Shown: positions 8,280-63,075 of the stretch, one piece after another
How the letters are laid out: each line of letters opens with the position of its first letter
Numbering within the stretch: position 1 is the stretch's first letter
UHGV virus genome: UHGV-0057547
Strand: one strand, 5' to 3'
Length of the DNA stretch: 64,000 bases
From: a virus
Translations under genes and position numbers: made by a program
The notes under the pieces: generated by a model
The model's input: the letters and a program-made list of their open reading frames with translations, nothing else
The model's database searches: none
What the model was told of the DNA's origin: nothing

Positions 8280-10187
8280 ATGCGAATCAAAAAAATTTAT
8301 TTCAATAGACTTTATAATCAATGGAAAGGTGAACCTTTATATGTAGAAGATGGTTTGAGAGATGATTGTTTATATGTAAGAATAATGGATGTTAAATATG
8401 AAGATGGTTCAATAAATGCAGTAACTGCTGATTTTAAAGATTTAAATGGTTATTCGTATTCTGTTTTAGGAGAAACAGATTATAAGAAAAAGTTGGCTAT
8501 ATTTAAAATACCTTTATCAATATTAAGCAATAATGGTGTTTATGAAGTAGGTTTTTCAATATCTTATAATTCTAAAGATACAAATAAAAATTATAAAAAG
8601 ACAGCTATCCAAACTTTTGAAATTGTAGATGCTATTGAATCAGATGATGAAGCTATCCAAAATGACCCTAAATATCCTATATTAACTGATTTAATTAATC
8701 AATTAGCAAATTATAAAATAGATATGACTGATTATCCTAAAAAAGAAGAAGTTGACAAAATAATAGATTTAAGATTTGATAATTTTCCAATTGATAAAAT
8801 AGTAGAAAAAATTCAAGAAGATGGATATATAACACAAGAAAAAGTAAATGAAATATTAAGAGATTATGTAAAGAAATTCGATTTAGGTGATTATGCTAAA
8901 AGAACTGATTTAAATAAATATGTTCCTTATATAACTTTTAATAATGCACTAGATAGATATATCTTAAAGAAAACAGTTGAAGATAATTATGTTTTAAAAG
9001 AAAATGGAAAACAATTATCTACTCATGATTTTACAGATGAATTATATGATAAATTAGTAGGTATTGATATAAATAATATTGAAGTTGATTTACATGAATA
9101 TCAAAAAATAATAGATAATAATTTAGATACAAATAATAAGGAAATAACTAAAGCTATAAATGAAGTAAATAAAAAGATACCAACTAAAACTAGTCAATTA
9201 AATAATGATAGCAATTATGTTGTCAGAAATGAATTGCATAATCATAATAATATGGATATATTAAATAATATTACATATTTTGATATAAATAGATGGAATA
9301 ATAAATCTGATTTTAGTGGTAGATATAATGACCTTGAAGGATTACCAAATATACCTTCAAAGACATCTGAATTAATTAATGATAGTAATTATGTTAATAA
9401 TAATTATGTACTTAAAAAAATAGCTGAGGCTAGTTTAAATAAAGATGTTGATTTGAGTGCTTATGCTACTAAAGATTTTGTAATTGATAACTTATCATCT
9501 GATGTTAAGAATTTGACGATAGTTAATTCAAGTGCTAAAGTTAGCCAAAATATTATAGATTATTTAAATGAAATTGTTAAATGTTTCCTAACTAATGATA
9601 CAATTAGAAATAATAAGATAAAATATTATTATATATTAAGAGGTAAAATAAATCCATTAGATGACGAATTTAAATTAAGTGTTAATGATGAATATTATAC
9701 TAATGTTTCTTATATTTCTATGTTAAATATAGAATGTAAAATATTAACAACGTTTTTATTTGCTAATGAAGGAATGATAAGATTAGAAACACCTGTCGAA
9801 GCAATTGTTGGTGGGGATGGAGTATATATAAATTTATCTATTACTGAATTAGGTAATGTTTATCTTAACAATAATAACAATAATATTGATATAGATGATA
9901 TTGTACAATCAATTATAAGTGATGATAGAAATAATTTATCTGAATTTAAAACATATTCAAATTCTATGATTGAAAATAGATTATTAGAAGTTAATGCTGA
10001 TATAACTGAAGTTTCAGATAATCTAAGTGGAGTTGGAAATAGAGTAAACTACTTGGAACAAAGAGAAACTTATTTTACTGAATCTTTGAATAATATTAAA
10101 AATTTACCTCAATTATCTTTTAATGATAATGGTGAATTAGTTGTAACTATTAATGGAGTTAGTAAAACTTTTATCCCTAAAGGATAG
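8280..10187 (+). CDS. Tail fibre / baseplate-associated receptor-binding protein
   Basis: 635 aa with RBS AAGGTGGTG. Repeated 'P(T/S)KTS(Q/E)L(N/I)NDSNYV' collagen-like fibre motifs. Asn-rich. Confidence 0.55.
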   Translation: MRIKKIYFNRLYNQWKGEPLYVEDGLRDDCLYVRIMDVKYEDGSINAVTADFKDLNGYSYSVLGETDYKKKLAIFKIPLSILSNNGVYEVGFSISYNSKDTNKNYKKTAIQTFEIVDAIESDDEAIQNDPKYPILTDLINQLANYKIDMTDYPKKEEVDKIIDLRFDNFPIDKIVEKIQEDGYITQEKVNEILRDYVKKFDLGDYAKRTDLNKYVPYITFNNALDRYILKKTVEDNYVLKENGKQLSTHDFTDELYDKLVGIDINNIEVDLHEYQKIIDNNLDTNNKEITKAINEVNKKIPTKTSQLNNDSNYVVRNELHNHNNMDILNNITYFDINRWNNKSDFSGRYNDLEGLPNIPSKTSELINDSNYVNNNYVLKKIAEASLNKDVDLSAYATKDFVIDNLSSDVKNLTIVNSSAKVSQNIIDYLNEIVKCFLTNDTIRNNKIKYYYILRGKINPLDDEFKLSVNDEYYTNVSYISMLNIECKILTTFLFANEGMIRLETPVEAIVGGDGVYINLSITELGNVYLNNNNNNIDIDDIVQSIISDDRNNLSEFKTYSNSMIENRLLEVNADITEVSDNLSGVGNRVNYLEQRETYFTESLNNIKNLPQLSFNDNGELVVTINGVSKTFIPKG

Positions 10188-32133: not shown

Positions 32134-34040
32134 TTATATGAAAAATATACTATTATCTTTATCAGCACAAATTATTTTAGTAGTTTTATTTGATTTTCTA
32201 AGTTCTTCTTCCATCTTATCTCTAAATTTATATTTACTATCATCGCTATGATGTATAACAATTAAATTAGTATTGATACCTTTCATCATTTTAATTATTT
32301 CTTTTCCTTGTATATGAGAAGACCATGTATTATATCTTATGACTTTAGCTTTCTTTTTAAATGACATATTTTCAATTTTAACTTCTTTAGTATTGTCGTT
32401 TAATAATAATCCTCCTACTGTTGTTGGAGCACAATAACCAATTATCATTATAGTATAATTACTATCCTCTATATTTGCTTTTAAATGATTTAATATTCTA
32501 CCTATATTACACATGCCAGCAGATGATATTACAATTTTTTGTTGTTCTTTATTAAGTGCTAAATTCATAGATGTCTCAAAGTCTTTTACAAAATGAAGTT
32601 TTTCCCATGATAATATTTGTTCAAATATGTCTTTATCTTCCTTGTTTAATATTTGTTTATAAACATCATTGATTTCCAAAGAAAGTTTACCATCTAAGAA
32701 TATAGGAGTTTTAAAATTTGGGTCATTAGAAAAAGTATTATATAAGTAATATAATAAATCTTGAGTTCTAGCTTGAGCAAAAGCTGGTATTAAAATTGAA
32801 TGACCTTGTTTTAATTCATTAATTATATCATCTTTCATTTTTTTTCTTTCTTTTTCAATATCTTTTGCATTAAATCCTCTTGATAAATCTGAATAAGTTG
32901 CTTCTGTTATTACTAAATTGGCATTTGATATAGTTTTAGTTTTTTTACGGAATGGTTGTTGATTATTAAAACTACCTGTATCTCCACTATAATATATTTT
33001 TTTTGTAACTCCACTTGGCATTTTAAAGAATAATTCTATTGAAGTTGCTCCTACTATATGGTTATTTGGCAAAAGTCTAAAGCTAACATATTCATTTAAC
33101 TCATGTATAACATCTTCTTCATAAGTAGAAGTTTTTGATAACATTCTATATACATCGCTTTCAGTATAAAGAGGTTCTACCTTATATCCTTGATTACTCA
33201 TTTGTCTACAATTTCTTTGTAATATATAAGCACCATCTATCAATAAAGGTTCAGATAATTCTTTATTCTCATAACCCATAATAAATTTATCTACATTATC
33301 TACTATAGCTGGTAGATTTCCTATATGGTCTAGTGATTTCAAAGATGTGAATGAGATACAAAACAAGCTTTTATTTGACCACATTCACAAACTTTTTCAA
33401 CCACCCCCTTATTAACCACATATTCTTCTCTTAAAGCACCATTCATTTGAACCATACCACATTCAATAAGAACTTTTTCATAGTCTCCTTCTTTTGTTGG
33501 ATATGATAAAAGTATAGATGTTCCAACAACACCATTATGACTTTCTCCTACAAATTCAACTATTACTTTATTTTTATTTTTCTTACTTATAATATATGGA
33601 TTCTTTTTCTTCTTTTTCTTTTTCTTAATTACATTGAGATTTTCTTTTCTACAATCTAAAAAATCACCATTTATAAACTCTATTTTATTATCATTTCCTA
33701 ATATATAATTTTGTAAAGTTGTATTTTTGCCTAGCACATCTCCAATAATACAAGAATGTTTTTTGTTCCATCTTACATTTTTACATGTTTTTACATCGTC
33801 TAAATCTATCAACACTCTTTCTTCAAGCTCTTCTTGAAACAAGGCATCATACAATACAATTTCAGCATAATCTTTATGTATTATTATTTCATTATTGTCA
33901 AATTCTGTTATAGGACTATCTGATATACAGAAACCATATTTCCTATATTCGTCCCAATGTTTTTTGCAAAGTCCATTTTTATTTTTTTTGCTTAATAGTT
34001 TTCCACATTGGTTACAGTATTTTTTATTATCTTTGTTCAT
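32134..34040 (-). CDS. HNH-endonuclease N-terminal domain fused to an MBL-fold beta-CASP-type nuclease, with the MBL HxHxDH motif interrupted by an 11-nt stop-containing insert
   Basis: Two track ORFs (33339..34040 and 32134..33384). Frame A ends FVSHSHL-TGA. Frame B continues DHIGNLP after the 11-nt TGAAATCACTA (plus strand 33331-33341). Removing it restores FVSHSHLDHIG. The N-terminal 140 aa carry a Zn-finger and HNH-like motif INGDFLDCRKENLNV. Confidence 0.55.
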
Positions 34041-34184
34041 TTATTTCCCTCCATCCATACCCTGATACATATATTTTTACATTTTTAATAATAATGTTCT
34101 TTGAATGATAAATCTATTTTTCATCTTATCACCTCATTATCTACATATATTAAATAAGTCAAACTCTTTATAATTATTTATTTA

Positions 34185-35031: not shown

Positions 35032-36630
35032 TTATTTATTTAATTTTCTATATTCATATTCTTCTTTATTTAATTCTTCTATTTCTTCTTCATTAAGTAA
35101 ATGATATTCATCACACCATATTTCAAACTCTCCATTTTGTACCCACTTTGTTTTAATTATTGTATTTCCGTCTTTATCTGTTGTTTCAACTTCTTTTTTT
35201 TCTTTTTTTGCCTTTTGGAACATATGATATACATTAATTACACTAAATGCTTTAAACGGTTGTGCTTCATAAAATCCTTCACCAACTTTTACCTCCATAG
35301 TTTTTCCAGTGCTTATATTAAAAATCCATGCTTTTTTATTCTTAAATTTAGTTACAACGTCAATAACAATACAAGTTGATGAATCATAATCTTCAAAATA
35401 ATAATTACATTCTCCAGTCATTTCAAGATTAATTTTAACTTTATCTATTGATGGCATTTCGCTATCTTCTATGTTCGACATTAATTCATTACATAATTCT
35501 AATGCTTTTTCTACTTTATATTGTTTATATTTATCTTCTTTACTCTTTTCAGTTGCATATTTTTCTATTATTTCTTTAGGGTATGGTAAATTAATTTTAT
35601 TAAATGATACTTCACCTTTTTTACTTTTTATTTTTTTACTTATTATATTTTCATATAACTTTATTATATCTAATAATTTTTGAGATTTACCAAATTCCTT
35701 GAAGAAATCTATTGATATCAGTATATTGAGTTGTCTTGAGTTTATAGATGTTTTATCATTTAAATCAATAAGTAAATCCATAAAACTATCATATTTATTA
35801 TCTTTTAACATATATAATTCTTGTGATACTTGTTCGTTCATATATTTTATACTAGCCATACCTTTATATATAGAGTTACTTTCTTTATCCATAAAATATT
35901 CAGCTTTAGAATATCTAAATTTAGGAGGTAATAATTTTATATCAAAATAGCTTAATTCTTTTATTAGTCTATTTGTTCTAGTTGAATCATCGGAATAAAT
36001 AGATAGGGCAACTGTATAATACTCAAGAGGATAATGTGATTTTAAAAATGCACCATATAGACTATCATAAGCATAAGAAAGTGAATGTGAAGCATTGAAT
36101 GAATATTTTGAAGCATCATTAACTACTTGCCATGTTTCTTCAAAACCATCTATTGAACCAACTTTATCTATCCAACCTTTTTTTAATTTTTCTTCTAGTT
36201 CTATTAATTCTTTTTCTTTAAATTTTTTCTTTGATATTTTTTTTATAATTCCATATGTTTCAGGTTCAGGAATACCTAACCATATTAAATATTTCATAAT
36301 AGATTCTTGATACATTAAATAATGATAACTATCTTCTAATAAATCATCTAATTCTTTTACGCCTGTTGTATATGGTTTCCTTTCTATAAAATTATCTAAT
36401 AAAGAAGCAAATCCAGGTCTAATAGATGCAACAAAAGCACTCATTTCAGCTACACTAGAAATTTTATATCTTGATGCTAAATTAGTTGCAAAATCTGAAT
36501 CAGATTGATTTATTGTGCAAGTTATTTTATCTTCATATATTTTAAATGTTTTTTCATCTAACATTTTTTCTAATTCTTTAATAGTTGGTATTTTAATATT
36601 AGCTAATTCACAAGTTTTTCTTATTAAAGT
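35032..36630 (-). CDS. dnaE: DNA polymerase III alpha (DnaE-like), exon 2 (fingers and C-terminal domains)
   Basis: IRPGF...FIERKPYTTG...YQESIMKYLIWLGIPEPETYG block matches the DnaE fingers. The frame stays open upstream of the annotated ATG (36564) to about 36630. Confidence 0.65.
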   Translation of the reverse strand, partial: TLIRKTCELANIKIPTIKELEKMLDEKTFKIYEDKITCTINQSDSDFATNLASRYKISSVAEMSAFVASIRPGFASLLDNFIERKPYTTGVKELDDLLEDSYHYLMYQESIMKYLIWLGIPEPETYGIIKKISKKKFKEKELIELEEKLKKGWIDKVGSIDGFEETWQVVNDASKYSFNASHSLSYAYDSLYGAFLKSHYPLEYYTVALSIYSDDSTRTNRLIKELSYFDIKLLPPKFRYSKAEYFMDKESNSIYKGMASIKYMNEQVSQELYMLKDNKYDSFMDLLIDLNDKTSINSRQLNILISIDFFKEFGKSQKLLDIIKLYENIISKKIKSKKGEVSFNKINLPYPKEIIEKYATEKSKEDKYKQYKVEKALELCNELMSNIEDSEMPSIDKVKINLEMTGECNYYFEDYDSSTCIVIDVVTKFKNKKAWIFNISTGKTMEVKVGEGFYEAQPFKAFSVINVYHMFQKAKKEKKEVETTDKDGNTIIKTKWVQNGEFEIWCDEYHLLNEEEIEELNKEEYEYRKLNK

Positions 36631-36985
36631 CCAAACGGTAACTGCAAGATACGTTAATACCGTTCCTTTCGGAATACTTTAACACCCATTTAAGGGTCGG
36701 ACTAGACTATACCTTTATCTTCGACATTACTCGTTAAGATATGCCTATTATAGTCGTTGAAGGTTTCCCATCTTAAAGGGACTTCCCTGCTGATTATCCA
36801 TTCATTCACCCTTAGCACTCTCACAAGGCTTTTATTTCAGCTTAGGCAATCCTTATAATTTTTTCTGCTTTCGCAACCATCAAGTTTAATGTTACCATTT
36901 ACTTTGTGGTTTATAAGGCTTTAGGAACTCCCAGCAATTTAAGGCATCATAATCTACATAATTTCTTATATAGACGACTATTAAA
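36631..36985 (-). ncRNA. Group I self-splicing intron (ORF-less) in dnaE
   Basis: Structured, GC-richer 355-420-nt ORF-free segment between the two DnaE halves. P/Q/R/S core elements occur in the right order on the minus strand (AAAUUGCUGGGAG; AAUCAGCAGGGAAG; UUCAACGACUAUAA; AAGGUAUAGUCUAGUCCG, giving P7 GACUA/UAGUC). Candidate IGS GUCGU pairs with exon end AUGAU. Exact 3' splice site unresolved. Confidence 0.75.
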
Positions 36986-38668
36986 TTAATCATTCTTTAA
37001 ATATTTATAAACATCACAATTATAACCATCTAAATTACAACATATTCCTTCTTTAGTTTTTATTAAACCAATTTCTTCTGAAACATTTTTATCATATAGT
37101 AACATTGAACAAGGTGATTCTGATATACTTTCCACTACTCCCTTAAATACTTTTGAATCTTTTATTATTTTTCCCCAATATTCATCGTTTTCATATTGCT
37201 CTAAATTTTTAGCTATTTCATCGTATTTACTAACATGCATATCATTTGCTTTACACCATAATCTAAAAGCAGATGAATCTTGTAAAGGTTTATATGATAA
37301 AATCCAAGCACAATTTTCTTCGCCTAATAAATCTTTAGTTGCTTGTATAAAAACTGAACGGTCTTCTGTATTTAAATCAACATCGGGTAATGAACGAGTA
37401 CCTAATATACGTTCTATACTCATAAATCTAGTTGGATACAATGGAACTGGTGCTGATAATCTATCTATTTCTGTTAAGCCTAATAATTTGTTTATAAGAA
37501 AACTTACAGCAGAACCTCTTCCTGTCTTAGTTAATAAGCCATTATATTTATTTATTGCTCTTTGACATATTTTATAATCTAATATAAAATAATCTTCCAT
37601 ATGTGTTTTCTCAATTATATTAAATTCATATCTTATAGCTTCTAAATATTCATTCCATCTCTCTTTAGGTATTGTATCTCTTATTTCCATCCATCTTTTA
37701 TTAATTATATCTTTTAATTCTTTATTTGGATTATTTGATATTGATGGCATTTTAATTTCTTTATCTAATATAATATTTTCACATTCATCAAAAATTAAAG
37801 TATTATTAATTGCATCTTTTATTTGCTCTTCATTTAATATATTTTGTTTATTATATCGTTCTATTATAGTTTCTACATCAGGATAATCTAATATAAAGTT
37901 TGTTTCTTCTTTATATATGATGCCTTTTGCTTTAAGAAATAATTCTCTATAAATATAATCTTGTGGATTAATATAATGTGAATCGTTACCATGAATAATA
38001 TTAATATTATATTTTTCACTTAAGCATAGAATTTTTTTATTAAGATTTTTTTGTATATCTTCATTATGGTTTTGAACTTCTAAATAAAAATTATTACCAA
38101 AATATTCTTTCATTTTTATAATCCAATCGTCTAAGCCTTCATCATTTCTTAAACGACCAGCAACACAAGCAGTTGTTATAATTGTATTATTTGGATTAAT
38201 ACTAAATAATAATTCATCATCTATTCTATTTTTATAATATACCCCATCTATATTGCTATAGGATAATATTCTATTTAAGTCTCTATATCCATCTTTATTT
38301 TTTGCTATTATAACTAAGTGATAATTAGAGTTATCTTTTTCTTTTCTATCTTTAACATAATATGCTTCTGCACCAACTACCATTTTAATACCTTTATATG
38401 ATTTATCGCATGTATCTTTATATTTACATTTTTCACAATTATGTTTTGTATATTCATTATTTTCTTGAGTAAGTTTTACACATACTTCACTACATAAAGT
38501 ATTTGCTTCATATACATTACCTTGATAACCATGTTCAGTAGTAAAATATATTGCATCTTTACCATCTAATTCAATTGCTCTAACTATATATTCTATTGGT
38601 TTAGTAACCACATCTAAACTTTTAATATTGCTATATATTTTATGTGAATGATAATTATTACATCTCAT
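36986..38668 (-). CDS. dnaE: DNA polymerase III alpha (DnaE-like), exon 1 (PHP and palm domains)
   Basis: PHP start NNYHSHKIYS. GRGSAVSFLINKLLGLTEIDRL. Catalytic LPDVDL (PDxD). Ends ...YLKND at the position of the third catalytic Asp. Confidence 0.7.
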   Translation of the reverse strand: MRCNNYHSHKIYSNIKSLDVVTKPIEYIVRAIELDGKDAIYFTTEHGYQGNVYEANTLCSEVCVKLTQENNEYTKHNCEKCKYKDTCDKSYKGIKMVVGAEAYYVKDRKEKDNSNYHLVIIAKNKDGYRDLNRILSYSNIDGVYYKNRIDDELLFSINPNNTIITTACVAGRLRNDEGLDDWIIKMKEYFGNNFYLEVQNHNEDIQKNLNKKILCLSEKYNINIIHGNDSHYINPQDYIYRELFLKAKGIIYKEETNFILDYPDVETIIERYNKQNILNEEQIKDAINNTLIFDECENIILDKEIKMPSISNNPNKELKDIINKRWMEIRDTIPKERWNEYLEAIRYEFNIIEKTHMEDYFILDYKICQRAINKYNGLLTKTGRGSAVSFLINKLLGLTEIDRLSAPVPLYPTRFMSIERILGTRSLPDVDLNTEDRSVFIQATKDLLGEENCAWILSYKPLQDSSAFRLWCKANDMHVSKYDEIAKNLEQYENDEYWGKIIKDSKVFKGVVESISESPCSMLLYDKNVSEEIGLIKTKEGICCNLDGYNCDVYKYLKND

Positions 38669-49481: not shown

Positions 49482-49585
49482 AATAATTCCTCCTTATTAA
49501 CAATAATATGAAAATACTAAACTATCATTTTCCGTTTCAATATTTATTCTTAAATTTCCCTATTCAACGTGTTCTTTTTCACTTT

Positions 49586-49650
49586 ATATAAGCTACTCAA
49601 GTTTTTATAACACTCCAAGGGCGTAAATTCGGATTTGAACATCCCTACAT
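49586..49650 (-). promoter_or_regulatory. Conserved structured 5'-leader element, copy A
   Basis: Core ACTCAAGTTT.TAT.A.ACTCC.AGGGCGTAAATTCGGA..TGAAC shared with 63010..63075. Lies between the promoter and the gene start. Confidence 0.45.
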
Positions 49651-62942: not shown

Positions 62943-63009
62943 ACAATAACGTTTCAGTGCTTGTTACAATTTCAGAACAAGCTTCCCTATTCATCGTATC
63001 CTCTTTCCT

Positions 63010-63075
63010 TTTTACAAAGTACTCAAGTTTGTATGATACTCCCAGGGCGTAAATTCGGAACTGAACTTTCCTATT
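63010..63075 (-). promoter_or_regulatory. Conserved structured 5'-leader element, copy B
   Basis: Same core as 49586..49650; the hairpin stem differs by compensatory changes (UACAAA/UUUGUA vs UUAUAA/UUAUAA). Confidence 0.45.

Follow-up and report, generated by a model that had tools for sequence, protein, structure and literature searches.

The minus strand of the 64,000-nt stretch of virus genome UHGV-0057547 analysed here (the window) carries two open reading frames (ORFs), 36986-38668 (560 aa, C-terminus ...CNLDGYNCDVYKYLKND*) and a second one listed from an ATG at 36564 to 35032 (510 aa), which correspond to the two halves of a DnaE-like replicative DNA polymerase. Do they encode two polypeptides, or do they represent a single gene whose message is rejoined by splicing? 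We consider it highly probable, judging from the sequence, that the segment 36652-36988 (minus strand) is a functional group I self-splicing intron, devoid of an endonuclease ORF, which restores a single polymerase mRNA. A group I intron splitting this gene had already been proposed in an original prediction made from the letters of the DNA, and a covariance-model match of 61.9 bits, an in-frame junction, the alignment of D560 with D555 of the Escherichia coli enzyme, and covariation of the helices all bear that proposal out.

The interrupted polymerase gene and its predicted splice junction

Exon 1 (36989-38668, minus strand; 1680 nt, 560 aa), delimited with the ORF list, Pfam and PDB alignments, comprises a PHP domain and the Pol III alpha palm (Pfam PHP, 67 bits; DNA_pol3_alpha, 82 bits). 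Exon 2 (35032-36651, minus strand; 1620 nt, 539 aa and a stop codon), delimited by translation and Pfam, supplies the fingers, helix-hairpin-helix (HhH) and C-terminal domains (DNA_pol3_finger, 53 bits; HHH_6, 37 bits). The ORF list and Pfam thus agree with the earlier statement that the halves of a Pol III alpha homologue lie in separate ORFs, the first one ending in YLKND. In PDB alignments, 'SLPDVDLN' of the window falls on 'SMPDIDTD' of Taq alpha, which identifies D429 and D431 (37384-37376) as the first two catalytic aspartates. The last codon of exon 1, GAT at 36991-36989, encodes D560, and phmmer aligns this residue with D555 of E. coli Pol III alpha in structure 2hnh ('lkndyl' on 'vkfdfl', K553-F554-D555; E. 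coli numbering counted from chain residue 483). With its PHP domain, palm, fingers, HhH and three catalytic aspartates, the protein is a C-family replicative polymerase (DnaE/Pol III alpha; SPbeta YorL-like). It is 53-59% identical to CST061 of Clostridium phage c-st, annotated as a homologue of SPbeta YorL. The nearest cultured relatives by polymerase, namely phages c-st and D-1873 of C. botulinum, Clostridioides phages, and prophage-like contigs of Terrisporobacter and C. difficile, share 53-61% amino acid identity with it, and the host is probably a clostridial Firmicute. All relatives returned by a scan of genome contigs (Terrisporobacter, C. difficile CD160 and metagenome-assembled genomes; at most 61% identity) were uninterrupted. 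The exact exon-1 protein occurs, with identical neighbouring genes, on at least 20 assembled contigs, of which the longest measures 204 kb (ENA ERZ1310023).

The intron (36652-36988, minus strand; 337 nt) is defined by a match to an Rfam model, by a junction fixed with homologues and by covariation. When the region 36400-37150 was searched alone, RF00028 (Intron_gpI) matched at 36684-36998 of the minus strand with 61.9 bits (E 3e-15; model positions 1-253 of 253; gathering score 50 bits). The splice sites read GAU|UAA...ACG|UAU, in phase 0 and directly after the codon of the third catalytic aspartate. Pairing of exon AUGAU with intron GUCGU in helix P1 puts the 5' splice site behind GAT (36989), where the final U of the D560 codon serves as the splice-site U(-1). 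The first codon of the intron is an in-frame UAA; its last nucleotides are ...UUAACG, with the terminal guanosine (omega-G) at 36652, and this is the sole 3' G that preserves both the frame and the homologous protein sequence (...UUAACG|UAUCUU). Exon 2 accordingly starts with TAT CTT GCA (YLA...), and the first in-frame ATG, at 36564, lies 29 codons past the junction; those 29 codons encode sequence conserved in uninterrupted homologues (YLAVTVW...). Both exon lengths are divisible by three, the frame is continuous, and the spliced product counts 1099 aa. The ligated junction is predicted to read ...AAGAATGAT|TATCTTGCA... in nucleotides and ...YLKNDYLAVTVW... in peptide.

Comparison with uninterrupted genes gives the same junction. 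CST061 of phage c-st reads ...YKYLKNDYLTVSVW... against ...YKYLKNDYLAVTVW... in the spliced window protein, with ...KNDYLTVSVW facing ...KND|YLAVTVW at the junction itself. Of the loci recovered from IMG/VR and GenBank, about 74 run without interruption through ...YK[YF][LV]KND|[YLI]L..., and the intron-less alleles of loci L005 and L006 read AAATATTTAAAAAATGAT|TATTTATCAGTAAC at the insertion site. The original prediction had set the intron at 36565-36990; its presence stands, whereas its extent does not, since 36565-36651 belongs to the coding part of exon 2, ahead of its first ATG. In a similar way, the prediction named the correct residue (D555-equivalent) but put the insertion within its codon rather than directly after it. 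The segment was rightly described as GC-richer than its surroundings, with a G+C content of 0.37 at 36600-36899 against 0.18-0.30 in the flanks.

The course of splicing proposed here follows established group I chemistry, applied to an anatomy that is seen directly. One pre-mRNA would be transcribed, and ribosomes would halt at the UAA forming the first intron codon, so that the ribozyme would be free to fold; in a parallel case, that of T4 td, an in-frame stop keeps ribosomes out of the ribozyme. P1 would then arise by pairing of the guide GUCGU with AUGAU at the end of the exon, the pair at the splice site being a U.G wobble, and an exogenous guanosine bound in P7 would attack after U(-1). 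Omega-G (36652) would take over the site, the 3'-OH of exon 1 would attack after omega-G, and ligation of GAU|UAU would yield the mRNA for a single 1099-aa polymerase (...YKYLKND-YLAVTVW...).

Apart from its interruption, the polymerase carries, at exon-1 residues ~58-95 (approximately 38461-38380), a ~27-aa Cys-rich insertion in the PHP domain relative to CST061 (...CSEVCVKLTQENNEYTKHNCEKCKYKDTCDKSYKG...). It is possibly a zinc-binding insert.

Structure and covariation of the ribozyme

The structure was assessed on an alignment of 13 introns: that of the window; those of the IMG/VR loci L011 and L070 (see below) without their ORF loops; one from Enterococcus phage phiEF17H; two each from Staphylococcus phages BE05 and RODI and one from Quidividi; one from Lactococcus phage AM2; and three from further IMG/VR loci. 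RNAalifold found P2, P4, P5, a branched P5 extension, P6/P6a, P7, P8 and the 3' hairpin, with compensatory changes at 40 of the 66 pairs. After the P3 pseudoknot and P9 had been added by hand, 96.9% of 893 cells were standard pairs, and 46 of 71 pairs showed changes on both sides, across introns residing in different host genes. Shuffled controls reached 74.0 ± 1.0% (0/500 attained the observed value), and sliding the partners by 1-3 columns left 32-41%. The single-sequence fold of the window intron has an energy of -81.3 kcal/mol (minimum free energy, MFE; z = -3.1).

P1 (36974-36993, minus strand, as are all helices below), read from the sequence and the Rfam alignment, joins exon AUGAU (36993-36989) and intron U1 A2 to the guide U9-A10-G11-U12-C13-G14-U15 (36980-36974). 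Its core, GUCGU, occupies intron positions 11-15, and the wobble pair U(-1).G11 sits at the 5' splice site; a guide located 10 nt into the intron, pairing with AUGAU and ending in U.G, is indeed present as foreseen. Locus L070 has an identical guide and an identical insertion site. A8-A10 and exon-2 UAU could further form a 3-bp P10. The P2 hairpin (36955-36972; intron 17-34), with 7 bp and a GAAA tetraloop, is supported by the MFE fold, the Rfam alignment and partial covariation (helix 1 of the alignment). The 5' strand of P3 (36943-36947; intron 42-46, AUGCC) pairs with GGCAU at 244-248 (36741-36745), forming a pseudoknot with P7; it covaries at 4/4 pairs, with 100% of cells paired (helix 2). 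RNAalifold had paired columns 47-49 with 351-353, an option rejected for the canonical P3 because it showed no compensation.

The P4-P5 domain (36788-36936) includes P4, in which UGCUGG (53-58; P) pairs with UCAGCA (196-201; Q), P5 (63-65/190-192) and the P5 extension (66-189). Branched and ~125 nt long, the latter comprises a P5a of 8 bp, an invariant hairpin with a GAAA cap and, positioned after the P5 hairpin on our reading of the alignment, an invariant A-rich GAAAAAA segment. Helices 3-9 are 91-100% paired, and P5a covaries at 8/8 pairs. P6 and P6a follow at 36762-36786, with P6 made of GG 203-204 and CC 226-227 and P6a being a hairpin at 207-223, GUCCCUUUAAGAUGGGA; both are supported by covariation (helices 10-11). 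The catalytic core (36705-36755) consists of P7 (234-240/278-284; R/S) around the P3 3' strand (P3', 244-248) and P8 (249-253/268-272). The guanosine-binding helix P7, GACUAUA with UAUAGUC, is almost invariant and hence uninformative on covariation, and P8 covaries at 4/5 pairs. All strings that had been assigned to P and Q as P4 and to R and S as P7 were found on the minus strand.

In the Michel-Westhof classification, introns of subgroup IA2, the typical ones of T4, Twort and SPO1, have the extra helices P7.1 and P7.2 between P7 and P3'. Here, the gap between P7 and P3' (J7/3) is only ~3 nt and these helices are absent, the peripheral mass lying in the P5 extension instead. At the 3' side (36663-36697), the alignment and its covariation define P9 (292-295/302-305) and a GAAA-capped, P9.1-like hairpin (315-326); helix 15 covaries at 4/4 pairs. 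As read from the alignment, P2, a P5 sub-helix and the P9.1-like hairpin each end in a GAAA tetraloop. P9 presents a compensatory series: CC/GG in the window, UU/AA in L011, UC/GA in L070 and UGC/GCA in phiEF17H. Keeping in mind that the ribozyme parts of the window and L011 are 96.5-98% identical, such changes between the two point to ongoing selection for pairing.

Relatives with an endonuclease gene and the alternatives

A protein-guided scan of IMG/VR gave 78 loci, including the window's own contig (L004). According to tblastn, the insertion site is also occupied in L011 (3300000360_000171), L016 (3300045988_163643) and L070 (3300045988_126140), in each case by an insert of ~1.16 kb. Their polymerases share 91-99% (L011 and L016; L011 alone 96-99%) and 55-65% (L070) amino acid identity with that of the window, and over intron positions 1-206 and 224-337 the identity to the window is 96.5-100% in L011 and L016 (L011 alone 96.5-98%) and ~80-83% in L070. 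Site and guide are shared by all of them, but where the window has its 17-nt P6a hairpin, the three relatives have a perfect stem of 12-14 bp around a ~820-nt LAGLIDADG gene. The encoded protein of ~263 aa contains two LAGLIDADG motifs (Pfam LAGLIDADG_3, 30.5 bits against a cut-off of 22.5), and the L011 and L070 versions are 68% identical. The intron ORF of T4 td sits in P6a as well.

The endonuclease ORF that makes an intron a homing intron is, in other words, present in L011, L016 and L070 and absent from the window, where the only ORF inside the intron is a 40-aa one with a GTG start, spanning P5-P7. The original prediction was correct in this respect, whereas its view that such a lack is noteworthy did not hold: the LAGLIDADG form exists in the three loci, and the closest relatives in Enterococcus and Staphylococcus phages have no ORF. 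ORF-less phage group I introns are common. The window intron is the endonuclease-free form of an element whose LAGLIDADG form circulates in near-identical phages, and it cannot home by itself. Its P6a hairpin resembles that of ORF-less Enterococcus and Staphylococcus introns and is no remnant of the endonuclease-bearing stem. We infer that an ORF-less lineage was the source of the hairpin, through inheritance or recombination, and that a simple deletion did not produce it.

Between the window and L011, identity reaches 100% in exon-1 nt 1-881, in exon-2 nt 508-1620 and in the ~890 nt directly downstream of the gene, and it is 99-100% in the 1500 nt upstream. Between these stretches there are 29 differences in exon-1 nt 882-1669 and 15 in exon-2 nt 54-507, in addition to the intron itself. 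Such a divergent patch of ~1.3 kb, centred on the intron, looks like a gene-conversion (co-conversion) tract or the result of localised recombination. The intron probably persists by being phenotypically silent, by destroying, as we suppose, the site targeted by the endonuclease, and by being exchanged through recombination or gene conversion in mixed infections.

Could the interruption be explained otherwise? An element of another kind (intein, group II intron, IStron or an insertion sequence) or an assembly artefact seems to us close to inconceivable. Polymerase genes of this family do harbour inteins (L016 and L069 at GRG|S, L029 at SFN|); however, an in-frame stop opens the insert, neither a long ORF nor a Hint or intein signal is found in it, group I is its best and only significant RNA-family match, and no transposase is present. 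As for an artefact, the arrangement is repeated on at least 20 independent contigs and recurs, with a homing endonuclease gene (HEG), in L011, L016 and L070. It is also quite improbable, if less so, that the segment is a decayed, non-splicing relic and that two polypeptides, one with PHP and palm and the other running from the fingers to the C-terminus from ATG 36564, assemble non-covalently. This would agree with the practice of gene callers and GenBank, which treat such loci as two genes (560 + 510 aa here; dnaE2/dnaE1 in PhiSepi-HH3), and with the lack of an HEG, a state expected late in the homing cycle. However, all core helices are intact and covary, nothing has been lost of the U.G pair, omega-G or the P7 sequences, and P9 differs between the window and L011 by compensatory changes despite the high identity of the two ribozymes. 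Moreover, exon 2 has no start codon at its 5' end, a start at ATG 36564 would delete the 29 conserved residues, and the third catalytic aspartate would be left as a C-terminal residue.

A scenario to which we grant appreciably more room, though less than an even chance, accepts splicing and adds that the intron stays mobile in trans through an endonuclease that is free-standing or supplied by a co-infecting phage. ORF-less introns can cooperate with free-standing endonucleases, and trans mobility has been documented for other phages (PMC3984707). A cognate LAGLIDADG gene exists in sibling phages, and the intron-centred patch, which resembles co-conversion, is the sole divergence between the window and L011 in the polymerase gene. 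On the other hand, tblastn found no homologue of the relatives' LAGLIDADG gene in the window (E > 2), and adjoining the polymerase gene there is no confident free-standing HEG, only a sub-threshold HNH_3 match (E 0.04) in ORF 33339-34040; the patch, too, could stem from ordinary recombination, or L011 and not the window could be the converted genome.

Returning to the reading of 36652-36988 as a functional self-splicing intron with a history of exchange, we would like to set out the points that weigh against it. Splicing is deduced from sequence rather than observed, and P10 has at most 3 bp. The fit to the generic RF00028 model is only moderate, the ~130-nt P5 extension being treated as an insertion in L5. 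Rfam scans of the whole window, under both the 'gathering' and the 'evalue' thresholds, gave no intron match and returned only two RAGATH-18 RNAs. Within the patch, L016 is about equally distant from the window and from L011, and either genome may be the converted one; likewise, gain and loss of the endonuclease may both account for the polymorphism, and a protective role of the intron against the endonuclease is a conjecture.

With regard to the Rfam scans, the intron was matched when its region was searched alone, and we therefore attribute the whole-window misses to losses in the speed filters. The check by a group I covariance model that the original prediction had suggested succeeds above the gathering score on the isolated region, while a whole-window run would have failed wrongly. 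An 'evalue' scan of seven interrupted homologous loci (70 kb) and a targeted scan of the Staphylococcus SPbeta-like intron gave no matches either. Both were counted as uninformative because L016, one of the seven loci, holds the same intron (with an HEG) and because nhmmer, run with a profile built from the 13-intron alignment, finds group I 3' halves in L056, L058-61, L081 and L109. The same profile detected one copy of the intron family in the window and no second one. A practical warning follows: with default filters, the Rfam group I model misses such introns in long AT-rich phage sequences, and routine counts of phage introns are underestimates.

A further difference between the window and L011 was seen downstream of the polymerase gene, where L011 has at 8356-9711 an insertion of 1.36 kb against ~50 nt in the window (~34091-34142). 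The insertion codes for a 405-aa ORF that, judged by eye, resembles IS605-family TnpB/OrfB.

Related introns, inteins and neighbouring features

To which elements is this intron related? A blastn search of 50,697 phage records yielded 153 with related sequence. The best match is an unannotated ORF-less intron located between two ribonucleotide-reductase coding sequences (CDSs; nrdE-like) of Enterococcus phages phiEF17H/EF7H, with 74% identity over 87% of the window intron. It is followed by ORF-less introns of Twort-like Staphylococcus phages (BE05, Quidividi and phiIPLA-RODI; Herelleviridae), with 68-70% identity. Like the window intron, these possess P3-P9.1, the P5 extension with its GAAA-capped hairpin and A-rich segment, and a short P6a. 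Unlike it, they reside in nrdE or tail genes instead of a C-family polymerase gene, and their P1 and guide are site-specific and unrelated. In the Staphylococcus phages, two related ORF-less introns ~45-70 nt apart stand in tandem (L111/L116, 1457-2148; L112, 1463-2136) downstream of the tail-tube CDS and are unannotated in the records.

Several interruptions affect polymerase genes of the same family. In Staphylococcus phages PhiSepi-HH3 and SPbeta-like 2, 'dnaE2' and 'dnaE1' are 462 nt apart, and the 3' 62 nt of the spacer are 84% identical to the window intron; the site differs, however, as the exons join at ...ELP|DIDID..., at the first catalytic aspartate. Between P7 and P3', the Staphylococcus and Brochothrix introns also have, unlike that of the window, extra helices. 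In Lactococcus phage AM2, two CDSs named 'DNA polymerase III alpha subunit' (AM2_136 and AM2_139) flank an intron with a core 74.5% identical to the window's, but the site is ...NAVG|.SFNSSH... and degenerate LAGLIDADG ORFs lie near the 5' end. None of these split dnaE loci of Staphylococcus phages and AM2 is annotated as an intron in GenBank. Among the IMG/VR loci, L056, L058-61 and L081 carry out-of-frame inserts directly after the first catalytic aspartate (SLPD|VD), with 3' ends recognised by the intron profile (nhmmer E 1e-7 to 1e-12); an HNH_3/NUMOD4 ORF lies in the insert of L081. A 1.39-kb insert of unexplained type interrupts the polymerase gene of L082. Outside the polymerase gene, about 2.8 kb upstream of it, L033 and L062 have another copy of the intron family at positions 2-202 (nhmmer E 7e-42), at the edge of the fetched loci.

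Inteins (Pfam Intein_splicing) occur in the same polymerase family: LAGLIDADG-containing ones at TGRG|SAVSF in L016 (1708-3000) and L069 (4051-5358), and an HNH-containing one at YSFN| in L029 (5182-5907). The polymerase gene of L016 thus holds both an intein and the HEG-containing intron. As in the cyanobacterial DnaE split intein, these elements share with the window intron a position at a conserved C-family polymerase motif and a product restored by splicing; in contrast, inteins act by protein splicing of an in-frame Hint domain, whereas the window element belongs to the RNA level, is out of frame and is closed by a stop. Further parallels are the introns of the SPO1/SP82 polymerase (I-HmuI), of Bastille (I-BasI) and of T4 td, which are likewise group I introns at critical codons of replication genes. 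The SPO1/SP82 enzyme belongs to family A rather than family C, and the classical introns have the IA2-type P7.1/P7.2 that the window intron lacks.

Homing endonucleases target the codons of critical residues (PMC3984707), and the present case extends the rule of group I introns at catalytic-residue codons to family-C polymerases. No account of a group I intron within a DnaE/Pol III alpha gene of a phage came up in literature searches, which, given their incomplete coverage, is weak evidence of the host gene being new for elements of this type. The earlier remark that such introns are uncommon in DnaE-type phage polymerases agrees with this, but not with the unannotated homologous introns of Staphylococcus SPbeta-like phages, AM2 and IMG/VR contigs. 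Overall, the intron belongs to a known family of Firmicute phages and is an ordinary instance of a well-known phenomenon, leaving current concepts unchanged; what may be new is the host-gene family. It is tempting to suppose, although we hold this as a tentative view that is somewhat more doubtful than not, that DnaE/YorL-type genes of Firmicute phages are an unrecognised hotspot of self-splicing elements, that the window and L011 caught a turn of the homing cycle, and that the ORF-less intron is a resistance allele or is trans-mobilised. According to such a view, introns may have entered independently at no fewer than three sites (after the first aspartate, after the third one and at SFN-SH) and inteins at two more or above.

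In practical terms, the polymerase should be annotated as one 1099-aa protein and not as two genes, and the same mis-annotation is found in deposited Staphylococcus and Lactococcus phage genomes. Two near-identical genomes, one having the endonuclease gene and the other lacking it, offer natural material for studies of homing, co-conversion, and endonuclease gain and loss. We see the added value of the locus in this endonuclease polymorphism with its putative conversion tract, in the repeated colonisation of DnaE-like catalytic motifs, and in the warning about covariance-model filters.

Finally, we would like to comment on some neighbouring features of the window. At 33339-33384 (minus strand), a gene for a beta-CASP/metallo-beta-lactamase nuclease is broken inside its HxHxDH motif. 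The break reads ...cat tca cat CTT TGA aatca CTA gac cat ata gga..., where a Leu codon is directly followed by UGA, a second Leu codon lies 8 nt downstream, and an 11-nt skip restores HSHLDHIG. It is identical in L016/L102 and in L100 (the L011 contig), which are independent assemblies, and so it is no assembly error; it may mark a pseudogene that has been conserved, or a candidate site of programmed frameshifting or of a short translational bypass. ORF 33339-34040 (minus strand) has an N-terminal zinc-ribbon/HNH_3-like region of ~145 aa, the sub-threshold Pfam match mentioned above, apparently with a substitution of its first His. Between this region and the nuclease domain (phrog_36352), which starts at about residue 153, lie eight consecutive lysines (an A-tract); the nuclease may here be joined to what was once a free-standing HNH gene, now decayed. 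The two RAGATH-18 RNAs lie at 49556-49621 and 62983-63047, both on the minus strand, with 69.4 and 62.9 bits, respectively, against a gathering score of 44.9, and the one at 49556-49621 occupies an intergenic gap with no TnpB-like ORF adjoining.

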